A DNA stretch of 64,000 nucleotides from an uncultured Acidimicrobiaceae bacterium (GCA_964617995.1 CAZTXD010000001.1:6383-70382), one strand, 5' to 3'; positions 11,896 to 22,867 are shown, counted from the first letter of the stretch. Translations and numbers: made by a program. The notes: a model not told the origin generated them from the letters alone.

Positions 11896-12726
11896 TCAGC
11901 TCTGGCAAGAAGGGCAGAAGTGACTGGAGCGCTGCGCCACCACCACCCGCTCGATCGGCGTGCCGCATTCCGGACAGGGTTCTCCCGGCCGCCCGTAGAC
12001 GGCCAGCCGCGTGAGGAAGTCGCCGGCGCGACCGTCGGGGAGGAGATAGGCGAGGTCATCGAGCGAGGTCCCGCCCATCGCGATACCGGCTGTGAGGACG
12101 ATCGGGATCGCCTGGACGAGGGCCTCCACCTCGCCGGTGCTCAGCGAACCCGCCGGACGTTCGGGACGCACTCCCGCCCGGAACAGGACCTCATCGGCGT
12201 AGATGTTGCCCAGGCCCGCCAGGATCCTCTGGTCGAGCAGGATGGCCTTGATCGGGGCCAGCCTGTCTGCCAGGCGCCGGCTCATGTCGGGCGCCGAAGG
12301 TGGCGAATCCCAGGCGTCTGGCCCGAGCCGGGCGAACGGGTCGGCGGACAGCTCGTCGGGGGTGAAGACCGCCACGAACCCGAACGTGCGGGGGTCGATG
12401 AGGCGGACTTCATCCCCCCGGTCGGTGACGACGGTGAAGTGGGTGTGGGCCTCGTCGGGTGCGGCCGCGTCCACGATGCGAATGCGCCCGGACATGCCCA
12501 GGTGGATCACCCACGTGAGGTCGCCGTCGACCTCGATCCGGAGGAACTTTCCCTGCCTCCCGACCCTTCCCACCCTCCGACCTCGGAGACGGTCGACCAC
12601 GTCGAGGGGTCGGATGTTGCGGCGGGCCATCCGGTCCCGGGTCAGCTCGACGCTGGCGATCCTCGCTCCCTCCAGCACGGGGGCGAGATGGCGCCGGGTG
12701 GTTTCGACCTCGGGTAGCTCGGGCAT
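11896..12726 (-). CDS. mutM: Formamidopyrimidine-DNA glycosylase
   Basis: 276 aa. MPELPEVE N-terminus and a C-terminal zinc finger (CPECGTPI...CPSCQ). Confidence 0.9.
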   Translation of the reverse strand: MPELPEVETTRRHLAPVLEGARIASVELTRDRMARRNIRPLDVVDRLRGRRVGRVGRQGKFLRIEVDGDLTWVIHLGMSGRIRIVDAAAPDEAHTHFTVVTDRGDEVRLIDPRTFGFVAVFTPDELSADPFARLGPDAWDSPPSAPDMSRRLADRLAPIKAILLDQRILAGLGNIYADEVLFRAGVRPERPAGSLSTGEVEALVQAIPIVLTAGIAMGGTSLDDLAYLLPDGRAGDFLTRLAVYGRPGEPCPECGTPIERVVVAQRSSHFCPSCQS

Positions 12727-12751
12727 CAGGAAGCGCTACCGTACCCCCGCG

Positions 12752-13738
12752 ATGGACAGCGCCCGACCAGATCTGCGACCCCTGGGGGTGGGCGAGATGG
12801 TCGACGGTGCCATCCGTCTGTTCCGCACCAACTTCGTGACGCTGATCAAGATCTCTGCAGTGGTGCTCGTGCCGATCGGCGTGATCCAGCTCGTCGGGAC
12901 CGTGGCGGTGGGGCCTGTCGACATGTTCACCCTGATCGTGGAGGACCCCGAGGCCACCCCCGGCGAGGTGATCGGTCCCCTGATCCCGCTGTACACGGTC
13001 TTCGGCATAACCGGTCTGCTCTCCTTCCTCGGCTCCATCCTGGTGCAGGGCTCGTCGATCACCGCGCTCGCTCGGGTCTACCAGGGAGAGCAGCCCGACT
13101 GGATCTCTTCGTTGAAGGCGGGCGCCAGGCGCTTCCTGCCTCTCACCATCTCGACGATACTGGTCTCGGTCGGTTCGGCCCTCCCTCCCATCGCCGCGGC
13201 GGTGGTGATGGTTCTCCTGGTGATCGAAATCGGCCCGGTGGGCATACTCGGTGGCCTCGTGGCCATCGCCGGAGGCGTGGCGGCAGCCGTGTTCCTCTTC
13301 ACGAGATGGACCGTCTCCCCGGCGGCTCTGGTGGCCGAGCAGCTGGGACCGGTGTCGGCGCTGGGTCGGTCCTTCGGGCTGGTCAGGGGCCGGTTCTGGC
13401 CCGTGCTCGGCGCCGTGCTGCTCGCCTACCTGCTCTATTTCGTGGTCAGCCAGATCGTTTCGGTGCTCACCACCGTCTTGACGGTGGCGGGAGCGCTCGG
13501 CAGTGAGCAGATCTCGTTCATACCCACGGTGATCGGGACCGTGTTCGTATCCGTGATCGCCACGCCGTTCCTGGCGGCGATGGTCACGATCATCTATTTC
13601 GATCTTCGGGTGCGCACCGAGGGCTACGACCTCGAGTTGATGGCAGCCGACCTCGAGCGTATCGAGGGACAGGGCGCCGCCCCGGCTTCTCCCCCACCCG
13701 ACGATCCGTTCGGTCTGGGGTCTCCCGGCGACCGATGA
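12752..13738 (+). CDS. Polytopic membrane protein, first gene of the MoxR/DUF58 locus; possibly GP-PDE membrane-domain-like
   Basis: 328 aa from an internal ATG (MDSARPD...). At least 6 predicted TM helices, a conserved YFDLRVRTEGYDLEL segment and a Pro-rich tail. Its stop overlaps the next ATG. Confidence 0.5.
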   Translation: MDSARPDLRPLGVGEMVDGAIRLFRTNFVTLIKISAVVLVPIGVIQLVGTVAVGPVDMFTLIVEDPEATPGEVIGPLIPLYTVFGITGLLSFLGSILVQGSSITALARVYQGEQPDWISSLKAGARRFLPLTISTILVSVGSALPPIAAAVVMVLLVIEIGPVGILGGLVAIAGGVAAAVFLFTRWTVSPAALVAEQLGPVSALGRSFGLVRGRFWPVLGAVLLAYLLYFVVSQIVSVLTTVLTVAGALGSEQISFIPTVIGTVFVSVIATPFLAAMVTIIYFDLRVRTEGYDLELMAADLERIEGQGAAPASPPPDDPFGLGSPGDR

Positions 13739-14364
13739 CCACATCGACCTTCGGGACCCTGGCCCAGGCCTCACCCTGGCCCCCCGATGAGATCGAACGG
13801 GCGGTAGCCGAGGAGCTCGCCTTGCCCAAGTATCGCCTCGGTTCGCCCTGGTGGGCGCGCCTGGTGGAGTGGTTGGAGAGAGCCTGGGTTCGCCTGGTCG
13901 AGTGGATGACGGCCGCTTCTGACTATGTGGGAGGGCCGGTGATCATGGCGATCCTGGTCGGGGGCGCCGTGGCGGCGATCGTGGCGATGGTGACCGTCAA
14001 CCTGGGAAGGCGGCGTGCCCGTCGGATCGACGAGCGGATCCGACGCGAGCACCATGAAGCCCGGGGTTTGGATCCGGGCGAGCTCGAGGTCCGCGCCGGG
14101 GCGGCCGAGGACAGAGGCGATCATGCCGAAGCGATGAGGCTCCTCTTCCGCGCCGGGCTCATCCGTCTCGACCGAGCCGGGCTCATCGATCTCCGTCCCG
14201 GAACCACATCGGGAACGGTCGCCGCCTACCTCGGGTCACCGGAGTTCGAGAGGGTCGCCGCCCGCTTCGACGCCGTGGTCTACGGAGAGCGCCCGGCCAC
14301 ACCCGCCGATCCCGACCTGGTTCGTGCCTTGACCACCTCCCTCCTCACCCGAACGCGCCGATGA
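13735..14364 (+). CDS. DUF4129-domain protein
   Basis: 209 aa. A single TM helix is followed by a region resembling the DUF4129 transglutaminase-associated domain (LLFRAGLIRLD...AAYLG). ATGA overlaps on both sides. Confidence 0.5.
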   Translation: MTTSTFGTLAQASPWPPDEIERAVAEELALPKYRLGSPWWARLVEWLERAWVRLVEWMTAASDYVGGPVIMAILVGGAVAAIVAMVTVNLGRRRARRIDERIRREHHEARGLDPGELEVRAGAAEDRGDHAEAMRLLFRAGLIRLDRAGLIDLRPGTTSGTVAAYLGSPEFERVAARFDAVVYGERPATPADPDLVRALTTSLLTRTRR

Positions 14365-15482
14365 TTCCTCCCTCCACCACCATCACCGAGCAGGGCAGAC
14401 GCCTCCGACGGGCATTGCTGTGGTTGGGAGCCGGTGTGGTGGCACTGAACGTGGTGGTGGTGGTCGCCTCGTCGGTGGCGGGGGGAGGGGCAGTGTCGGG
14501 CCCCGGGGGCTCCAGCTTCGTGACCACCCGCTCCGGCTCGGCGGCGCTGGCGGGAACCCTCGACAGGCTGGGCGTCGGCGTCGTGCAGAGCCGCCGGCCT
14601 CTCGACGAGGTCTCACTCGATCCCGGGACGGCTGTCGTCACCGTCGACGTCGGCGGCGCCGACTACACGTCGTCGGAGCTGAACGCCCTGGAGGCCCATC
14701 TGCAGGCCGGAGGACGCCTCATCGTGGCCGGGCAGGCGACGATGGTGGATCGTTTGCTGGCGGACCCGCCCCGCTGGATCTCCCGAGGCTCGGATTCGGC
14801 CTCACCGGCGGCCGGCCTGGGCATCTCCGGGGAGGAGACCGTGCCCCTATCGGGCTTCGGGTCCCTCGACCCTGCGGGGGTGGACCAGGCGGTCGTCATC
14901 GCCGACGATGGAACGGTCGTGGCGGTTTCCCGCCCGGTCGGAGAGGGGCGGTTCGTGTGGATCGCCGACTCGTTCCCGGTCCACAACCAGGGCATCGGCG
15001 TCGATGAGGCGGCGGTGACCGTGATGGCCCTGATCGGCCCGCAGGACCGGGTTCTCTTCGACGAGTACCGGCATGGCTACCGGGAGGAGGGCGGCTTGTG
15101 GGCGCTGCTCCCCGACCGCTGGCGCCTGGCTCTCGGACTCGGCGGGCTGGTGGCGCTGATGGGTCTCGTGGCGTATGGCCGCCGTCTGGGCCCTCCCCAC
15201 GACCTCTGCCGCCGCATGCCGCCGGGACGCGAGCTCTACCTGGAGGCCGTGGCGGGGATGCTGGCCCGGGCGAACGCCAAGGCCGACGCCCTCGAGACGA
15301 TCCGCTCCGAGGTGCGTCGCCGCCTCGAGGAGCGGGCACCCCGGACCGAGCCGGAGGTGGCGACTGGTGCAGGCCCCCTCGACCCAGCTGAGGTCGAAGC
15401 CGTGTTCGGTCCGGGCAGCGACGATGACACACTGGTGGCCGCCGACCGGGCCCTGGCCGCACTGAACAGGGAGAACCAATGA
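14361..15482 (+). CDS. DUF4350-like exported/membrane protein
   Basis: 373 aa. An N-terminal TM helix followed by an extracytoplasmic domain, a context typical of MoxR-locus DUF4350 proteins. ATGA overlaps on both sides. Confidence 0.45.
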   Translation: MIPPSTTITEQGRRLRRALLWLGAGVVALNVVVVVASSVAGGGAVSGPGGSSFVTTRSGSAALAGTLDRLGVGVVQSRRPLDEVSLDPGTAVVTVDVGGADYTSSELNALEAHLQAGGRLIVAGQATMVDRLLADPPRWISRGSDSASPAAGLGISGEETVPLSGFGSLDPAGVDQAVVIADDGTVVAVSRPVGEGRFVWIADSFPVHNQGIGVDEAAVTVMALIGPQDRVLFDEYRHGYREEGGLWALLPDRWRLALGLGGLVALMGLVAYGRRLGPPHDLCRRMPPGRELYLEAVAGMLARANAKADALETIRSEVRRRLEERAPRTEPEVATGAGPLDPAEVEAVFGPGSDDDTLVAADRALAALNRENQ

Positions 15483-16414
15483 GAATGAACGACCTGAGGG
15501 ACCACCTCCATGCCGCTGTGGCGACCGTCGTCCGGGGCCAGACCGCCACCGTCGACGCCCTCTTGATCTCGGCCCTGGTCGGCGGGCACGTCCTGCTCGA
15601 GGGAGTCCCCGGCACGGCCAAGACGCTTCTGGCCCGGGCGGTGGCCCGCGGTCTGGGGATTCACTTCGGTAGGGCTCAGTTCACTCCCGACATGCTTCCC
15701 TCCGACCTGACGGGGACCATGACCCTCCGCGGTGGCGAACTCTCGTTCCGGCAGGGTCCGATATTCACCGGCCTCCTGCTGGCCGACGAGATCAACCGCA
15801 CTCCTCCCAAGACCCAAGCAGCCCTGCTGGAAGCCATGGAGGAGGGGCAGGTGACCGTCGACGGCGTGTCACGTCCCCTGCCGCGGCCCTTCATGGTGGT
15901 GGCCACCCAGAACCCCATCGAGTACGAAGGCACCTATCCCCTTCCGGAGGCGCAGCTGGACCGGTTCCTGATGAAGGTGCCGGTGGGGTATCCCGGTGAG
16001 GACGACGAGCAGGAGATGCTGTCCCTGCGTCGGTCGGGTCTGGCTCCAATGGGCCTCGAGGACATCGAGGCCGTCACGTCCGGGCCCGAGATCCTCGAGA
16101 TGAGGGACGAGGTCGACGACACGATCGTGGGCGATGAGGTGGCGGGATACGTCGTCGCGTTGGTGCGGCACACCCGCCGGCTTCCTTCGGTGGAGCTGGG
16201 AGCGTCACCACGGGCAGCGGTTCATCTCCTTTCGGCGGCCCGCGCTCTCGCCCGTTTGTCGGACCGTGACTTCGTCACCCCCGACGACGTGGTGAGGCTG
16301 GCACCGGGAGTTCTCACCCACCGCATCCTCATCCGCCCTGAAGCCGAGCTGGAGCGCTACCGCCCGGCCGATGCGGTTGCCGCCGCCCTCGACGACGTGG
16401 ACGTTCCCCGATGA
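15479..16414 (+). CDS. moxR: MoxR-family AAA+ ATPase
   Basis: 311 aa. Walker A GVPGTAKT, Walker B LLADEINR and overall MoxR architecture. Confidence 0.9.
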   Translation: MRMNDLRDHLHAAVATVVRGQTATVDALLISALVGGHVLLEGVPGTAKTLLARAVARGLGIHFGRAQFTPDMLPSDLTGTMTLRGGELSFRQGPIFTGLLLADEINRTPPKTQAALLEAMEEGQVTVDGVSRPLPRPFMVVATQNPIEYEGTYPLPEAQLDRFLMKVPVGYPGEDDEQEMLSLRRSGLAPMGLEDIEAVTSGPEILEMRDEVDDTIVGDEVAGYVVALVRHTRRLPSVELGASPRAAVHLLSAARALARLSDRDFVTPDDVVRLAPGVLTHRILIRPEAELERYRPADAVAAALDDVDVPR

Positions 16415-17661
16415 GCGTCACCCGTCGCGGCCTCGCTGTGCTGTCCGCCGCTGCCCTCACCGCACTCATCCTCCCCCCGGGGGCGGCCGTGGTGGTGTTC
16501 GTCATGGTGACGGTGGTGGTCGCGGCCGACGCCTGGTTGGTGCGGTCGCTCCCCGAAGTGCGGGTGGCGGTGCCGCCGATCCTCTCTCGGGGTGTCCCGT
16601 CCACTCTCGCCGTGGATGTTGAGCCGGACGTGGGCGTGATAGTGAAGATGGTGGGCACACCGGACGTCACGATCGAGCCTGAGGAGGGCCCGGGGGGTCT
16701 CGCGGCCACGGTCACCGCCGTCAGGAGGGGCAGCCATGTGCTGGCCCGCCCCGCCACCGTGGCCGATGGTCCGTTGGGCCTGGGCCGGTGGTATCACAGA
16801 CCAGGCAGCGAGACCCCGGTGGTGGTTTATCCCGACATGCCCGCTGCCCGGCGCATCGCCACCGAGGTGCGACTCGGGAAGTTCGGGGAGACCTCCCGGC
16901 GCAGCCGTGGCCCCCTGGGCCTCGGTACCGAGCTCGAGTCCATCCGCGAGTATCTCCCCGACGACGACATCCGCCAGGTGAACTGGCGGGCCACTGCCCG
17001 CACGGGAACGCCCATGTCGAATACCTACCGGATCGAACAGGAACGCGAGGTGCTCGTGCTGCTGGACACCGGGCGGCTCATGGCCGCACCGGTGGGTGAC
17101 GGGACCGAACGCACCCGTCTTGACGTGGCCGTGGACGCGGCGGCGGCGGTTGCCTCCGTTGCCGACGTGGTGGGCGACCGCGTCGGCCTGGTGGCGTTCG
17201 ATGCGAAGCTGCGTCGTCGCCTCCTTCCCCGCCGGGACGGCGGCGACGTCGTGGTGACTGCCATCCATGACCTCGAACCCACGGCCGCGGAGTCGGACTT
17301 CGAGCTGGCCTTCCGCACGATCGCTCACAACAAGCGCGCTTTCGTCCTGATACTCACGGACCTGCTCGAGGAGACCGCCGCCCGTCCCCTCCTCGACGCC
17401 GCCCCGATCCTCGCCCGTCACCACGCCATCGCCGTGGCCGGGGTCGCCGACCCGGCCGTTTCGGCGGCACTGTCGACGCCCGCCTCTTCGGTCGAGGACG
17501 CCTTCCGGACCGCCACGGCGATAGACATCGAGACGTCGCGCCGGCGAGTGGCGACGCGACTCGACGGCTATGGAGCCACGGTGATCGACGTCGCTCCCGA
17601 CCTCCTCCCCTCCCGGTGCGTGGCCGCCTACCTGCGCGCCAAGCGACGGGCACGTCTCTGA
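16411..17661 (+). CDS. DUF58-domain protein, vWA-like partner of MoxR
   Basis: 416 aa. N-terminal TM segment plus the conserved DUF58 core (REYLPDDDIRQVNWRATARTG...). ATGA overlap with moxR. Confidence 0.8.
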   Translation: MSVTRRGLAVLSAAALTALILPPGAAVVVFVMVTVVVAADAWLVRSLPEVRVAVPPILSRGVPSTLAVDVEPDVGVIVKMVGTPDVTIEPEEGPGGLAATVTAVRRGSHVLARPATVADGPLGLGRWYHRPGSETPVVVYPDMPAARRIATEVRLGKFGETSRRSRGPLGLGTELESIREYLPDDDIRQVNWRATARTGTPMSNTYRIEQEREVLVLLDTGRLMAAPVGDGTERTRLDVAVDAAAAVASVADVVGDRVGLVAFDAKLRRRLLPRRDGGDVVVTAIHDLEPTAAESDFELAFRTIAHNKRAFVLILTDLLEETAARPLLDAAPILARHHAIAVAGVADPAVSAALSTPASSVEDAFRTATAIDIETSRRRVATRLDGYGATVIDVAPDLLPSRCVAAYLRAKRRARL

Positions 17662-17669
17662 ACCCTTCT

Positions 17670-17704
17670 GGTTGCCTGCGAACGGATAGCGTTCGCAGGC
17701 AACC
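17670..17704. terminator. Bidirectional hairpin, 15-bp perfect stem
   Basis: GGTTGCCTGCGAACG-gatag-CGTTCGCAGGCAACC lies between the convergent DUF58 and SpoIIM-like genes. Confidence 0.6.
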
Positions 17705-17725
17705 AAAGAAGAGGGAGACCGTTCG

Positions 17726-18688
17726 TCACGGTCCAGAGAAAGCCCCGCCGCGCCACCACAGCAGGATCCAAAAGGTGGCCCCCAGGACCACTCCCACCAC
17801 CGCCGTCGGTGCCAGCGACAACCCCACCCGACTGACGTACCCTTCCACCAGCCCCGCCACCGCCAGCCACGGTGCCGTCCCGCCCGCCAGGAGCAGCGAC
17901 TGGCGCGCCTCATGTGCCATCGACTCGGTCCTCGTGCGGTGGCCGGGACGGAGCATCGCCCGTCCCAGGCTGAGGCCGGCAGCCCCGGCCACGATGATGC
18001 AGGACAGCTCCAGCACGCCGTGGGCCATCGTCGCCTCTCCCAGCAGCGCCAGGTTGCCGGCACCGGCGGCAAGTCCGGTCAACGCACCGAACAGCACACC
18101 GTTGTAGCCGATCAACAGGGCTGTTCCCACCCCCCAGGTGATCCCGGCCACGAAGGCCGTCAGGGCAACACGAATGTTGTTGGTGAGCACGAACGTGCTG
18201 AATCCCGCCAGGCCGACCGCCCCCAGACCCTGATCGGTGGTGTCGGCCTCCATCACCCAGAGGAATTCGACCGGTACCAGCCCCGCCACCGTTTCGGGTG
18301 CGCTAACTGCCCACAGCCCCATGACGACTCCGGGAATGAAGAGGACCACGCCCGCCAGGGCCAGTGCCCGACGTCTCTCCCACAGCAGTACCCAGTAGCG
18401 GTCGGCGAAGAAGTCGATCAGGTTCCCGCGGCGGTTGCTTCGTTCGTAGATCAGGCCCTGACCGGCTCTGACGAGCCGTTCCAATCGATCAACCAGCGGG
18501 TCCCCGGGGAAGTGGCGGCGGGCGGCTACGAGGTCGGCCGCCACCGCCCGGTACAGGGCCGCCAGACGCCGGATCCGTTCGCCTCCCAGGCGCTCCGGCC
18601 GCCGACCCGCCTCCTCCAGGAGCTCTTCCAGCTCCCTCCAGCGGGGCTGGCGGTCGCTTTCGAACCGACGTAGCGTGTCCACATGCAC
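17726..18688 (-). CDS. SpoIIM-like (DUF95) integral membrane protein
   Basis: 320 aa with several TM helices, a family habitually found in MoxR-DUF58 loci. The annotated GTG start overlaps the divergent RDD start; the true start may be the GTG at residue 3. Confidence 0.6.
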   Translation of the reverse strand: MHVDTLRRFESDRQPRWRELEELLEEAGRRPERLGGERIRRLAALYRAVAADLVAARRHFPGDPLVDRLERLVRAGQGLIYERSNRRGNLIDFFADRYWVLLWERRRALALAGVVLFIPGVVMGLWAVSAPETVAGLVPVEFLWVMEADTTDQGLGAVGLAGFSTFVLTNNIRVALTAFVAGITWGVGTALLIGYNGVLFGALTGLAAGAGNLALLGEATMAHGVLELSCIIVAGAAGLSLGRAMLRPGHRTRTESMAHEARQSLLLAGGTAPWLAVAGLVEGYVSRVGLSLAPTAVVGVVLGATFWILLWWRGGAFSGP

Positions 18689-19417
18689 CTCGAGGATCGC
18701 CTAACCATCGAAACCCCGGAAGGAGTGTCGATCGACCTGACGCTAGCGGGGCTCGGTTCCCGTCTCGGTGCCACGGTCATCGACGTCGTCCTGCAGGGGA
18801 TTCTGTTGCTCGCTGTGACGATCGCCATCAGCCTGGCGGGGGCGGTCGTATCCCCCGACCTGGGGGTGTTCCTCCTCGGCGTCGGCACGCTGGTCGTGGT
18901 GGCGATAGTGGTGGGTTATTACATCGTCTTCGAGGCCCTGAACGGTGGTCGAACGCCGGGCAAGGCGGCCTTCGGCATCCGGGTGGTGACCGTCGATGGC
19001 TCTGCGCTGACGCTGACGGCGGTGACCCTGCGCACGCTTATGCGACTCATCGACTTCCTGCCCGCTGCCTACGCAATCGGCGCCATCGCGGTGGTCACCT
19101 CGACACGCAATCAGCGCCTGGGGGATCTGGTTGCCGGCACAGTGGTTGTGCGCGACCGGATACCCGTCGCCGCTGCCCCCGCCCCGACACCCTCGAGCGA
19201 CGTCAGGGGTTGGGATGTGTCGGCGGTGGGGGACCCTGAGATCGGGCTCGTCCGGCGCTGGGCGATGCGCCGACAGGATCTCAAGGTCGAAGCCCGCCAC
19301 AATCTGGCGACCGAGCTGGCGGCACGGCTTCGTCCCCGGGTGGGTGGTGGCCGTGACCTCGACGACGAGGCGTTCCTGCTGCAGCTCCTGGTAGAGAAGG
19401 AAGGACGGGGTGACTAG
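18683..19417 (+). CDS. RDD-family membrane protein
   Basis: 244 aa with the RDD-domain topology (GATVIDVVLQGILLL...). Confidence 0.6.
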   Translation: MHLEDRLTIETPEGVSIDLTLAGLGSRLGATVIDVVLQGILLLAVTIAISLAGAVVSPDLGVFLLGVGTLVVVAIVVGYYIVFEALNGGRTPGKAAFGIRVVTVDGSALTLTAVTLRTLMRLIDFLPAAYAIGAIAVVTSTRNQRLGDLVAGTVVVRDRIPVAAAPAPTPSSDVRGWDVSAVGDPEIGLVRRWAMRRQDLKVEARHNLATELAARLRPRVGGGRDLDDEAFLLQLLVEKEGRGD

Positions 19418-19426
19418 GGGCAGGCC

Positions 19427-20113
19427 TCAGGACCCCGTCCGTCCCCACCGTTCCAGGGCCCGACGGGCCGCGTCCTGCTCCGCCTCCTTCTTCGACCGGC
19501 CGCTGCCCTCCCCCCATTCCTCGTCTCCCACGCGGACAACCGCTCTGAAGACACGGGCATGGTCGGGACCCGAGCCTTGCACCTCGTACTCGGGGCGCCG
19601 CTGATCGCTGGCCAGGAGCTCCTGCAGCCTGGTCTTGTAGTCCCGGCGACCCGGCGAGCTCGCCTTCGCCCGGACCCTCGACTCCCACAGTCGCATGATG
19701 ATGCCCCGGGCGGTCGGGTATCCGGCATCGAGGTAGAGGGCTGCCAGCACAGCCTCCATGGCATCGGCGAGGATCGAGTCCTTGTCCCGGCCGCCGGACG
19801 CCTCCTCACCTCTTCCGAGACGCAGGTACCGGCCCAGATCCAGTGTCCGGGCGACCACCGCCAGTTCGGCACCACTGACCGACGCCGCCCTGATCTTGGC
19901 CAGCTGGCCTTCGGGAAGCTCGGGAAATGCCGCGAAGAGGAACTCGGTGACCGCCATCTGCAAGACGGCATCGCCGAGGAACTCGAAGCGCTCGTTGTGG
20001 CCGACGTCGGAATGCTCAGAGGCGTAAGAGCTGTGGGTCAGCGCCTCGTCGAGGATCCGCCGGTTGGAGAACTCGTGGCCGATGGCCGACTCCAGATCGG
20101 CCACCCCGCTCAT
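19427..20113 (-). CDS. rnc: Ribonuclease III
   Basis: 228 aa. ERFEFLGDAVL catalytic signature plus a C-terminal dsRNA-binding domain. Confidence 0.9.
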   Translation of the reverse strand: MSGVADLESAIGHEFSNRRILDEALTHSSYASEHSDVGHNERFEFLGDAVLQMAVTEFLFAAFPELPEGQLAKIRAASVSGAELAVVARTLDLGRYLRLGRGEEASGGRDKDSILADAMEAVLAALYLDAGYPTARGIIMRLWESRVRAKASSPGRRDYKTRLQELLASDQRRPEYEVQGSGPDHARVFRAVVRVGDEEWGEGSGRSKKEAEQDAARRALERWGRTGS

Positions 20114-21282: not shown

Positions 21283-21774
21283 TCAGTGGTCGGGGGGATC
21301 GAAAAGGCCCTGCAGGACGGCGAAAGGCGAGCTGGAGGGATCGTCGTGACCGCCGCAGGGATCCTCATTCAAGTCGGTTCCGCACGTCGGACAAAGTCCC
21401 GCGCAGTCCGGTCGACAGAGCGGTCGCACTGGAACCGCCAGGGCGATCTCGTCGCGCACGGGACCGAACAGGTCGACGGTGTCGTCGGAGCCGAGGGCGT
21501 AGCCGTCCTCGTCGGGCTCGTTCTCGTAGACTTGCACCGCCGACGCCTCGATCCGGTCGTGCCATTCCGACAGGCACCGGGTGCACACCAACCGCGCCCT
21601 CACCGTCGCTGTGAAGCGGGCGAGTACCCCCGAGTCGATCCCCTCCAGGACGGCGCTGACCGCCGCCGCGTCGTCGACCCGGGACTCTCCCACGCTCAGC
21701 GCGAGGTCGACCGTCCCCTCCTCCGACCTCCGCTCGCCGGGCTTGTCGATGAGGTCCGCCACCGGGAGCCGCAT
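21283..21774 (-). CDS. yceD: YceD/DUF177 family protein (large ribosomal subunit accumulation)
   Basis: 163 aa from an internal ATG. Carries the C-terminal Cys cluster CPTCGTDLNEDPCG typical of DUF177. It sits in the classic yceD-rpmF-plsX arrangement. Confidence 0.7.
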   Translation of the reverse strand: MRLPVADLIDKPGERRSEEGTVDLALSVGESRVDDAAAVSAVLEGIDSGVLARFTATVRARLVCTRCLSEWHDRIEASAVQVYENEPDEDGYALGSDDTVDLFGPVRDEIALAVPVRPLCRPDCAGLCPTCGTDLNEDPCGGHDDPSSSPFAVLQGLFDPPDH

Positions 21775-21779
21775 GCCGC

Positions 21780-22403
21780 TCACAACGGGACATCCGGCGG
21801 CTTGGGACGGGCGCGATGCAGTTCCTCGCGGGAGAAGTGCACCTTGCCCAGGAGCTCGCTGAGCAGGTTCTCCACCCTCTCGAGGCTCTGCTCGATCTCG
21901 TCCTCTGCTTCCAGCCGGAGACGCCGCGCCTCCCCTTCCGCTCTTCGCACCAGCATGTTCGCCTCCTCTACGGCCTCGGCGACTATGTGTGACTCCGAGA
22001 CGAGTCTCCGCGATTCCACCTTCGCCTTGTCGATGATGTCCTGGGCCTTCTCGTTGGTGCGGGCGATGAATGCCTCCCGCTCCCGCACCATCCAGCGGGC
22101 TGCGCGCAACTCGTCGGGTAGCTCGTCGCGCAGCCGTTCCAGCATCACGAGGAACTGTTCGCGGTCGACGAGAACACTCGACGACAAGGGCATCGTCTTG
22201 GCTTCGTGGAGGTGCGCGATCAGGTCGTCCACCATGTCCTGCAACTCGCCAACCGACGCCCGGGGGCGGGGAGCGTCGATGGCCCCCGCCACCACCTCCT
22301 GAGAGGAGGGTGCGTAGCCGTCGGCGTCCTCCCGATGCTCGTCGGGCTGGTGTTGCGGCTCGTCTTCGACCGTTTCTGTCTGATGATCGTCGTTGTAGGT
22401 CAT
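21780..22403 (-). CDS. Coiled-coil DivIVA-domain-like protein (SepIVA/Rv2927c-like)
   Basis: 207 aa. Acidic N-terminus followed by long coiled coils. It lies between coaD and yceD, as Rv2927c does in mycobacteria. ATGA overlap with the coaD stop. Confidence 0.4.
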   Translation of the reverse strand: MTYNDDHQTETVEDEPQHQPDEHREDADGYAPSSQEVVAGAIDAPRPRASVGELQDMVDDLIAHLHEAKTMPLSSSVLVDREQFLVMLERLRDELPDELRAARWMVREREAFIARTNEKAQDIIDKAKVESRRLVSESHIVAEAVEEANMLVRRAEGEARRLRLEAEDEIEQSLERVENLLSELLGKVHFSREELHRARPKPPDVPL

Positions 22404-22867
22404 CGCAATCGCTCCTCGAGCGCCCGGGCCACGTGCTCGGGCACGAGCCCCTCATATGACCCCCCCAGTCTGGCAACCTCACGCACCAAGGACGAGGACA
22501 GATACGACCATTCGGGATTGGTGGGGAGGAAGACCGTCTCGACCTGCGCCATGGAGCGGTTCATCTGGGCCATCTGCAGCTCGTAGTCGAAGTCGCTAAC
22601 CGCCCGAAGCCCCTTCACGATGACGTCGACGCCCACCTGATGAGCGAAGTCCACCAATAGACCATCGAAGGTCTTCACCTCGACATCCCCGTCGAAGGCG
22701 TCGACGATCATCGCACTGCGTTCCTCCACGGAGAACATCGGCTCCTTGGACGGATTGGCGACCACCGCCACCACCACTCGGTCGAAGATCTGACGAGAGC
22801 GACCTATCACGTCGACATGACCGTTGGTCGGGGGGTCGAAGCTGCCCGGGCACAGTGCTGTCGTCAT
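22400..22867 (-). CDS. coaD: Phosphopantetheine adenylyltransferase
   Basis: 155 aa from an internal ATG (MTTALCPGSFDPPTNGH with the HxGH motif). ATGA overlap with the rsmD stop. Confidence 0.85.
   Translation of the reverse strand: MTTALCPGSFDPPTNGHVDVIGRSRQIFDRVVVAVVANPSKEPMFSVEERSAMIVDAFDGDVEVKTFDGLLVDFAHQVGVDVIVKGLRAVSDFDYELQMAQMNRSMAQVETVFLPTNPEWSYLSSSLVREVARLGGSYEGLVPEHVARALEERLR

Follow-up and report, generated by a model that had tools for sequence, protein, structure and literature searches.

What does a MoxR-family AAA+ ATPase do when it is encoded among membrane proteins, and do these neighbors belong to it? The question is raised by positions 12752-19417 of a 64,000-nt stretch of DNA (the window) from an uncultured Acidimicrobiaceae bacterium (GCA_964617995.1 CAZTXD010000001.1:6383-70382), which hold seven genes, here called g1 to g7 (Table 1). 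We read this locus, with moderate confidence, as a membrane-anchored MoxR/vWA AAA+ remodeling system together with the membrane proteins that it acts on or with. Three observations carry the reading: the MoxR gene g4 is directly adjoined, with a 4-nt overlap, by g5, whose DUF58/vWA-type product is tethered by an N-terminal transmembrane (TM) hairpin; the membrane-protein genes g1-g3 lie immediately upstream and are chained to g4-g5; and the SpoIIM-like/RDD pair (g6 and g7) travels with g1-g5 across phyla. The identity of the parts, their crude topology, their synteny and their coupling through overlaps are established.

Conservation of the seven-gene neighborhood

Related loci were collected by scanning an alignment of 21 DUF4350 (g3) homologues against one genome per species, which gave 233 confirmed loci; the 80 best of these were retained. 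Iterated hidden Markov models built from the seven window proteins were then searched in the six-frame open reading frames (ORFs) of all loci, the g3-baited loci being screened for these seven families only. All seven families were found in 34 of the 50 loci with enough flanking DNA, and two more loci lack only a detectable g2. These seven-gene loci span at least eight phyla, with representatives in Acidimicrobiia, Coriobacteriia and other Actinomycetota, Chloroflexota, Symbiobacteriaceae, Armatimonadota, Planctomycetota, Verrucomicrobiota and Syntrophobacteraceae. The preliminary description of this DNA had held the neighborhood to be conserved, and it is, far beyond Actinomycetota.

The dominant order, 1>2>3>4>5>6<7> (arrows give the strand), is seen in Acidimicrobiia, Coriobacteriia, other Actinomycetota, Chloroflexota, Symbiobacteriaceae and Armatimonadota. 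Variants are 7>6> (one Planctomycetota and one Syntrophobacteraceae locus), 6<7< (one Verrucomicrobiota locus), 7<6> (one Acidimicrobiia locus) and a form with 6< upstream of g1 (one Gemmatimonadota locus). All seven genes form one co-directional operon in locus L084 (locus numbers are ours), and six are co-directional in L090, where the DUF4129 gene is upstream and points the opposite way; both loci have a 4-nt overlap of the RDD and SpoIIM genes. When SpoIIM was used as the bait instead, with Pfam-annotated gene calls, an adjacent RDD gene and DUF58-MoxR-DUF4350 alongside were found in 5 of 5 look-ups, a g1-type protein in 3 of 5 and DUF4129 beside it in 1 of 5, three of the five contigs being truncated or fragmented on that side.

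Overlapping genes and translational coupling

Coordinates re-read from the sequence bore out the tight packing of the seven genes and placed the four stop/start overlaps (ATGA) at exactly 13735, 14361, 15479 and 16411. In the related loci, the -4 overlap ([AGT]TGA) recurs at g1/g2 in 51 of 65 cases, at g2/g3 in 52 of 76, at g3/g4 in 31 of 75 (with 27 more overlapping by 8 nt) and at g4/g5 in 36 of 56, i.e. in 64-78% per junction if the -8 form is counted at g3/g4; for these counts the start nearest to the stop was chosen, which favors the -4 result. We estimate at roughly 15% the chance that a TGA stop falls in the required frame with a permissible base before it.

A crude, relaxed gene call of the window gives a possible 4-nt overlap for about 3 of 22 same-strand neighbor pairs outside the locus versus 4 of 4 inside, and plsX and rnc also overlap by 4 nt (20110-20113), so a 4-nt overlap as such is routine in this genome. 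Four consecutive overlaps that are conserved across phyla indicate selection for coupled translation. Since a Shine-Dalgarno-like sequence (GGGAG) is found at the g3/g4 junction only, termination-reinitiation is the likely route at the other junctions. The overlaps had earlier been taken to imply obligate co-translation and fixed stoichiometry; coupling and coordinated synthesis survive from this claim, whereas fixed stoichiometry does not, since an overlap alone cannot show it and such overlaps are common here.

Table 1. Genes and sequence elements of the locus (positions in the window)
Feature	Position	Strand	Length	Description
g1	12752-13738	+	328 aa	Polytopic membrane protein, ~6 TM, UPF0259/DUF7847/GPDPase_memb type, predicted CysZ/CTL-like fold
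g2	13735-14364	+	209 aa	Single-pass membrane protein, C-terminal DUF4129
g3	14361-15482	+	373 aa	DUF4350 protein
g4	15479-16414	+	311 aa	MoxR-family AAA+ ATPase
g5	16411-17661	+	416 aa	DUF58 protein, vWA-like domain
g6	17726-18682 (alternative GTG 18688)	-	318/320 aa	SpoIIM-family membrane protein with N-terminal cytoplasmic DUF8413
g7	18683-19417	+	244 aa	RDD-family membrane protein, 3 TM, C-terminal cytoplasmic extension of ~100 aa
-10-like heptamer TACCGTA	12737-12743	both		In the fpg/g1 divergent spacer
Perfect inverted repeat	17669-17705	none		Between the convergent g5 and g6 stop codons
-10-like hexamer TAGCGT	18671-18676	+		6 nt upstream of the g7 ATG, inside g6 codons 3-4 (ACG CTA)

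The MoxR ATPase and its DUF58 partner

Pfam profile searches agreed with all domain assignments made at the outset (DUF4129, DUF4350, MoxR, DUF58, SpoIIM and RDD). The g4 product matches AAA_3 (E = 1.4e-58, 196.9 bits versus a cut-off of 27) and AAA_lid_2 (E = 1.4e-18, 66.8 bits versus 22.7), and its nearest solved structure is the MoxR protein 2R44 (E = 1.4e-71). It has Walker A (GVPGTAKT, G42-T49), Walker B (LLLADE, L99-E104), sensor-1 (N145), an Arg finger (R162) and sensor-2 (R245), and these catalytic motifs are kept in 74 sequences; judged by them, g4 is a MoxR ATPase with its catalytic motifs intact.

The g5 product matches DUF58 (E = 7e-22, 78.1 bits versus a cut-off of 23.4) and VWA_2 (E = 2e-8). 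Its TM hairpin is followed by a large DUF58/vWA body that is predicted to be cytoplasmic. No sequence relatives were found in the PDB for g5 or for the SpoIIM-like protein g6.

Folds and topology of the membrane proteins

A crude count of hydropathy and charge places DUF4129, the g3 tail, the g6 head, the g7 tail and the DUF58/vWA body in the cytoplasm, and leaves the DUF4350 domain of g3 (~200 residues) as the sole large extracytoplasmic part.

In Pfam, g1 has only a sub-threshold match to GPDPase_memb and no EI24/CysZ or Choline_transpo match at E <= 0.01; the precomputed Pfam matches of its relatives are UPF0259, DUF7847 and DUF7544, and g1 has a conserved C-terminal Y-x-D-L-R-x-R-x-E-G-x-D motif. 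The best matches of its AlphaFold2 model (predicted local distance difference test, pLDDT, 90.3; predicted template-modeling score, pTM, 0.83) are the sulfate permease CysZ and CTL1/PNS1, clearly ahead of every other fold, and Foldseek again ranks CysZ and CTL proteins at the top. From this model we confidently assign g1 a CysZ/choline-transporter-like fold, as a resemblance and not as family membership: the identity of g1 (and of g3) to their structural look-alikes is 8-16%, and shared functional residues are not established. The likeness of CysZ and the CTLs was pointed out before (PMC13160678, 2026), in a study which doubts that CTLs are transporters and notes that the topology of CysZ differs; because of this doubt we take the fold as a lead, not as a function.

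The deposited NCBI/Logan form of g1 has 313 aa and starts at M16. Among 36 homologues, L8 and R9 are invariant and P10, L11, G14 and E15 are nearly so, which favors the 328-aa form from ATG 12752; in the deposited record the start has probably been set 45 nt too far downstream.

The DUF4129 domain of g2 (PF13559) scores 29.0 bits versus a cut-off of 24.8, and because the RRRARR stretch comes after the TM segment, the domain is predicted to be cytoplasmic. We take DUF4129 to be typically the C-terminal domain of transglutaminase-type membrane proteins in operons of MoxR, vWA and transglutaminase-like (TGL) genes.

The DUF4350 match of g3 has E = 2.4e-11. From the N-terminus, g3 consists of a TM segment, a ~200-aa extracytoplasmic GIFT/GATase1-like domain, an invariant FDE-x-x-HG, a second TM segment and a cytoplasmic helical tail of ~100 aa. 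By its structure model the ectodomain is a GIFT (IFT52/OST48/GldG) fold, in agreement with an earlier HHpred link between DUF4350 and GldG (PMC5898192). The top structural matches are the non-catalytic scaffold GIFT domains of IFT52 and OST48, with ThuA-like and GATase1-like proteins also listed. We considered the invariant S51/D203/E235/H238 of DUF4350 as a catalytic triad; the best structural matches are non-catalytic. The family is large: clustered at 50% identity, it has 15,519 representatives at E <= 1e-3, and 8,400 remain at E <= 1e-10.

An apparent g1-DUF4129 fusion of 571 aa was seen in locus L089 (9001-10716, protein P0236). It was not used as a Rosetta-stone fusion: the same contig has a fragmented DUF4350 gene and an odd MoxR-flavokinase fusion, and with genes so fragmented and fused, a sequencing frameshift at the 4-nt overlap is the likelier origin.

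The g6 product matches SpoIIM (PF01944; E = 6e-31, 108 bits versus a cut-off of 26.9), and its N-terminal third belongs to a new family, DUF8413 (PF28475). Conserved polar residues lie within its membrane segments (NN, N-G, H-G-x-x-E, P-G-x-x-x-R and E). The g7 product matches RDD (PF06271; E = 4e-18, 66.3 bits versus a cut-off of 24.1).

Expression signals

The divergent start codons of g6 and g7 had been described as overlapping at 18683-18688. They most likely abut (18682|18683), because the database protein (318 aa from GTG 18682) and the conservation among homologues both begin at 18682; independent gene calls also put the g6 start directly against that of g7, and only the longest ORF (GTG 18688, 320 aa) overlaps the g7 ATG. 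The two starts are 0-6 nt apart in 14 Acidimicrobiia loci, and TAGCKT (TAGCGT or TAGCTT) lies 6-12 nt upstream of the g7 start in all 14 of them. Read on the g6 strand, the hexamer makes up codons 3-4 of g6, with Leu written as CTA; CTA makes up 1.0% of Leu codons in 15 window genes, and the single CTA of g6 sits at this hexamer. A more distant lineage (L092) has the same geometry (TAGGTT-N6-GTG), and in the cultured Iamia sp. SCSIO 61187, where g6 and g7 are 56 nt apart, the hexamer is intergenic (TAGCGT-N7-GTG). TAGCKT looks as a -10 element (TANNNT) would if the g7 mRNA were leaderless, and g7 is probably translated from such an mRNA. No conserved TANNNT that could serve as a -10 element for g6 was found in the first 40 nt of g7.

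At the other end of the locus, the divergent fpg/g1 spacer has 25 nt (12727-12751) in the window and 22-25 nt in relatives. The sequence GCTACCGTACC is invariant in this spacer in the window and nine Acidimicrobiia relatives, and its core TACCGTA reads as a -10-like TACCGT on the plus strand (towards g1) and as TACGGT on the minus strand (towards fpg). This suggests that the spacer is a shared bidirectional promoter core from which near-leaderless mRNAs would start. No structured RNA of the window matched Rfam.

The g5/g6 junction

The inverted repeat between the convergent stops of g5 and g6 had been given as 15 bp long and as a bidirectional terminator. Its perfect arms have 16 bp (17669-17684 and 17690-17705, with a 5-nt loop), and the hairpin has a folding energy of -39.9 kcal/mol (z = -6.4 versus shuffles). 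It is indeed a strong hairpin between convergent stops; on the other side, it lacks a U-tract (there is no T-run beside it on either strand, and a scan for consensus terminators gave no call) and relatives do not have it. In about 20 related loci, the 3' ends of g5 and g6 overlap tail-to-tail by 4-99 nt, and the remaining relatives have a short gap with no perfect repeat longer than 5 bp. Among 92 loci, the hairpin sequence occurs only in contigs of the same organism, so the hairpin is lineage-specific and not defining for the system. We therefore rejected it as a conserved terminator, given the usual overlap of g5 and g6 in relatives, and also as a repeat of the repetitive extragenic palindrome (REP) or miniature inverted-repeat transposable element (MITE) type, of which the window holds no second copy. 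It may end or stabilize both transcripts, as a factor-independent or RNA-stabilizing element.

Insertions of 5-6 kb of unrelated genes sit exactly at the convergent g5|g6 junction in L009 (13395-18446), L016 (8286-14343) and L022 (~13300-19400). The L009 insert carries the cytochrome bc1 genes qcrCAB and a gene for a TIG-domain protein; the L016 insert carries an ABC sugar transporter, an SDR gene and a GlnA-like (glutamine-synthetase-like) gene. This junction has the appearance of a hot spot for insertions. The qcrCAB genes were rejected as encoding a client: they are present in L009 only, and L016 has other genes at the same spot, i.e. the insertions are heterogeneous.

Genomic setting

Upstream of the locus, the window has ftsY, smc, an acylphosphatase gene and fpg (11896-12726), and downstream rnc (19427-20113), plsX, a YceD-domain ORF and recG. 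The G+C content is ~67-72% across this region. Identical proteins are present in NCBI and Logan assemblies, and the closest relatives with a name are metagenome-assembled genomes of Acidimicrobiia. The placement between fpg and rnc (smc-acyP-fpg / rnc-plsX-yceD) is common to many Acidimicrobiia (loci L005-L012 and L015-L022); in other actinobacteria fpg and rnc are presumably direct neighbors. Iamia has the full seven-gene set at another genomic site. A Streptomyces locus (L087, GCA_042653885.1, 3172-14597) has g1-g5, on a contig that stops short of where g6 and g7 would lie; there, g1-g5 are divergent from an IF-2B-family gene, which is followed by a response-regulator/680-aa/LpqB set resembling mtrA-mtrB-lpqB. 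The longest YceD-domain ORF of the window (21283-22482, minus strand) has 399 aa, of which only residues 290-393 form the domain; the gene may be shorter, or be two genes, as the region is split into two ORFs in several relatives.

How the locus may work

In NorQ/NorD, one vWA domain plugs the pore of the MoxR hexamer (PMC9976466, PMC13036017). By analogy with NorD on NorQ, one DUF58 vWA domain of g5 would dock on a hexamer of g4 at the membrane, and ATP hydrolysis would pull on cytoplasmic handles of the co-encoded membrane partners. Candidate handles are DUF4129 (a good candidate), the helical tail of g3, the DUF8413 head of the SpoIIM-like protein and the RDD tail. Pulling might assemble, gate or reset a membrane complex whose sole sizeable extracytoplasmic part would be the GIFT domain, and the output could be in an envelope polymer, in the transport of a lipid head-group or ion, or in membrane-protein assembly; docking, handles and output are what we infer. 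Expression would be compact in this lineage, with g1 and g7 mRNAs that are leaderless or nearly so and ribosomes that probably pass from g1 to g5 by termination-reinitiation. The preliminary description had proposed a membrane-protein or envelope maturation machine. The action of MoxR and a vWA/DUF58 partner on membrane proteins is reasonable and fits an earlier prediction (PMC5898192); the step from there to envelope maturation is an inference.

Several points weigh against a membrane-anchored remodeling system of this kind. No client protein emerged from the analysis, the structure models are of single chains, and we found no published experiment that assigns a function to any orthologue. 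In g5, the DxSxS of the metal ion-dependent adhesion site (MIDAS) is replaced by D219-T-G-R-L (D-x-G-R-L-M is kept across 65 g5 homologues), and with its MIDAS degenerate, g5 may not bind clients in the canonical, metal-mediated way. Because a single bait family was used to collect the loci, frequencies such as 34 of 50 cannot be taken as unbiased. It speaks for the reading that in M. chelonae the orthologues from the two halves of the cluster shift expression together; yet the co-regulated stretch is contiguous and takes in glpK and glpF, so this could be a regional effect (PMC8191103).

Gene content also varies among the loci that weigh on this side. Eight loci of the Armatimonadota type (L049, L057, L061, L064, L071, L074, L078 and L081) have g1-g2-g3-MoxR with no detectable DUF58, SpoIIM or RDD, and four of Chloroflexota (L037, L073, L075 and L079) have the order g2-g3-g1 with no MoxR or DUF58 gene within the available flanks, which suggests that g1, g2 and g3 are a module of their own. 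In several Acidimicrobiia, g5 and g6 are separated by the insertions of unrelated genes (5-6 kb) described above. The modules are separable, which counts against an obligate complex of all seven proteins. In L071, g1-g4 are followed by genes for a TPR protein of 726 aa, a transglutaminase-core protein, two AstE/AspA-like proteins and an alpha/beta hydrolase.

A bolder version of the remodeling system, in which all seven proteins form one phylum-spanning machine with a MoxR/vWA motor that gates or assembles a CysZ/CTL-fold permease-like protein with a GIFT ectodomain and a SpoIIM/RDD module, we regard as doubtful. If it held, the locus would encode an AAA+-driven apparatus for transport or envelope remodeling, perhaps for lipid head-groups or glycerophosphodiesters, and Rv3689-Rv3695 as well as the non-sporulation SpoIIM and RDD families would gain a first function.

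Alternative explanations

The system could be centered on transport, with g1, perhaps together with the RDD and SpoIIM-like proteins, moving a small solute or lipid head-group, MoxR/DUF58 gating or assembling it, and the GIFT protein as an accessory like GldG. We consider this unlikely. The g1 model fits CysZ and CTL1/PNS1 and no other fold comparably, the Pfam relatives of g1 include a membrane domain fused to glycerophosphodiester phosphodiesterases, the mycobacterial cluster lies beside glpK and shifts expression with glpF and glpK (PMC8191103), and both the likeness of DUF4350 to GldG and the polar intramembrane residues of g6 would suit a transporter. However, the g1 likeness is at the level of the fold, the transport role of CTLs is disputed and the topology of CysZ differs (PMC13160678), substrate-binding residues were not identified in g1, and no MoxR system is known to gate a transporter.

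Quite unlikely, in our view, is a membrane-proximal quality-control system or unfoldase like the MoxR-vWA-transglutaminase (YebA/TgpA) systems, whose peptidase would act in trans or have been lost. A model of this type exists (PMC3495828), DUF4129 stands alone on g2, and the Armatimonadota variant L071 has its transglutaminase-core gene downstream of the cluster. Yet a Transglut_core or other peptidase domain is absent from all seven proteins, and besides L071 no peptidase gene was found in the neighborhoods with annotated genes (the g3-baited loci having been screened for the seven families only).

The conservation data speak to a third possibility, which we think improbable: that a MoxR operon (g1-g5) merely stands beside an unrelated pair of SpoIIM and RDD genes. 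The halves are separate transcription units in this window, unrelated genes lie between them in L009, L016 and L022, and some loci have g1-g5 with no detectable g6 or g7. Against this, the two are adjacent in 34 of 50 informative loci of at least eight phyla and in all five SpoIIM-anchored look-ups, their link survives four relative orientations (6<7>, 7>6>, 7<6> and 6<7<), and one-operon versions with 4-nt overlaps exist.

A dedicated chaperone for cofactor insertion or enzyme reactivation, like NorQ/NorD, CoxD/E/F or CbbQ/CbbO, that serves one enzyme encoded elsewhere would be the best-documented role of MoxR/VWA pairs, and one relative (L009) has qcrCAB inside the cluster. We judge it very improbable here: the MIDAS of g5 is degenerate, no enzyme gene is conserved in the neighborhood, the qcr insertion is confined to a single lineage while another has ABC transporter, SDR and GlnA genes at that place, and every conserved partner is a membrane protein that lacks cofactor motifs. 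An anti-phage or conflict system of the ternary type (bpMoxR and vWA with a beta-propeller and an effector) is hardly credible, as the weak match of g4 to PF20030 bpMoxR (33.5 bits versus 197 for AAA_3) is set against the lack of a PADLOC match for any of the seven proteins, which led us to reject a defense system, the lack of a beta-propeller or effector domain, a stable housekeeping site between fpg and rnc throughout a class and a uniform gene order across phyla.

Significance

The neighborhood is annotated and partly discussed already, and this instance of it adds little surprise. What the analysis adds is a broad and rigid synteny, conserved coupling, an embedded promoter with a leaderless layout as suggested by the sequence, a degenerate MIDAS and the CysZ/CTL-like fold predicted for g1. 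The value of this instance is that of a clean and compact example with two structural leads (the folds of g1 and g3). The cluster is a sizeable conserved piece of 'dark matter' that includes M. tuberculosis genes without an assigned role; understanding a membrane-tethered MoxR/vWA motor would take MoxR biology beyond cofactor insertion, and a role for the cluster would give SpoIIM homologues outside sporulation their first function.

Comparison with known systems

NorQ/NorD, CbbQ/CbbO and RavA/ViaA consist of a MoxR hexamer with one VWA partner, and the docking mode is probably common to them and to g4/g5 (PMC9976466, PMC13036017). Their MIDAS is intact and their client, soluble or respiratory, is defined, whereas here the MIDAS is degenerate and the partner is tethered to the membrane. 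The three-gene operon of MoxR, DUF58/vWA and transglutaminase (YebA/TgpA-type; Zhang & Aravind 2012, PMC3495828) shares with the locus a MoxR protein, a vWA partner, a membrane protein and the DUF4129 module; it has a transglutaminase-like peptidase where the locus has a GIFT-ectodomain protein and a CysZ/CTL-like protein, and g1-g7 gave no Pfam match to Transglut_core.

The archaeal neighborhood of arCOG01314 shares a membrane-anchored DUF4350 protein (N-terminal signal or TM segment, C-terminal TM segment, GldG-like fold), a COG0714 MoxR and a vWA protein. DUF4350, MoxR and vWA proteins were predicted to form a secretion or membrane-remodeling complex, and bacterial SpoIIM homologues were seen to neighbor vWA and COG0714 genes (Makarova et al. 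2015, PMC5898192). The archaeal systems add S-layer/Ig-like proteins (arCOG02884 and others), and no domains of the arCOG02884 type were found among the seven products or the flanking genes; the seven-gene form adds g1, DUF4129 and RDD. With GldG of the GldAFG ABC transporter, IFT52 and OST48, the locus shares the likeness of the g3 GIFT domain, again a resemblance and not membership.

SpoIIM of the Bacillus subtilis DMP engulfment complex shares the PF01944 domain with g6, which has the extra N-terminal DUF8413. No SpoIID or SpoIIP family gene was found in the annotated neighborhoods, where the constant partners of g6 are RDD and MoxR. To our knowledge, most hosts of the cluster belong to groups that do not form endospores, and we know of no sporulation in the host class.

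The closest counterpart is the mycobacterial cluster Rv3689-Rv3695 (MAB_0386c-MAB_0392c in M. abscessus; Rv3692 is MoxR2), which by published annotation has the same families, order and strands. Its Rv3690 we take to be the DUF4129 protein. The mycobacterial cluster lies beside glpK, whereas that of the window lies between fpg and rnc. Rv3694c and Rv3695 co-purify with the divisome protein Rv0954, one of the few hints in the literature on how the cluster works. No mycobacterial protein was among the matches listed in our scans of the genome collection; the comparison comes from a published table of M. chelonae and M. abscessus genes (PMC8191103), whose orthologues Rv3689, Rv3691, Rv3692, Rv3693, Rv3694c and Rv3695 are annotated, in this order, as membrane protein, DUF4350, MoxR, DUF58, SpoIIM and RDD. 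The mycobacterial parallel drawn in the preliminary description is thus matched in families, order and strand pattern (note the suffix 'c'). By its annotated families, their order and their strands, the locus is the Acidimicrobiia orthologue of the Rv3689-Rv3695 cluster, as is already recognizable from annotation.

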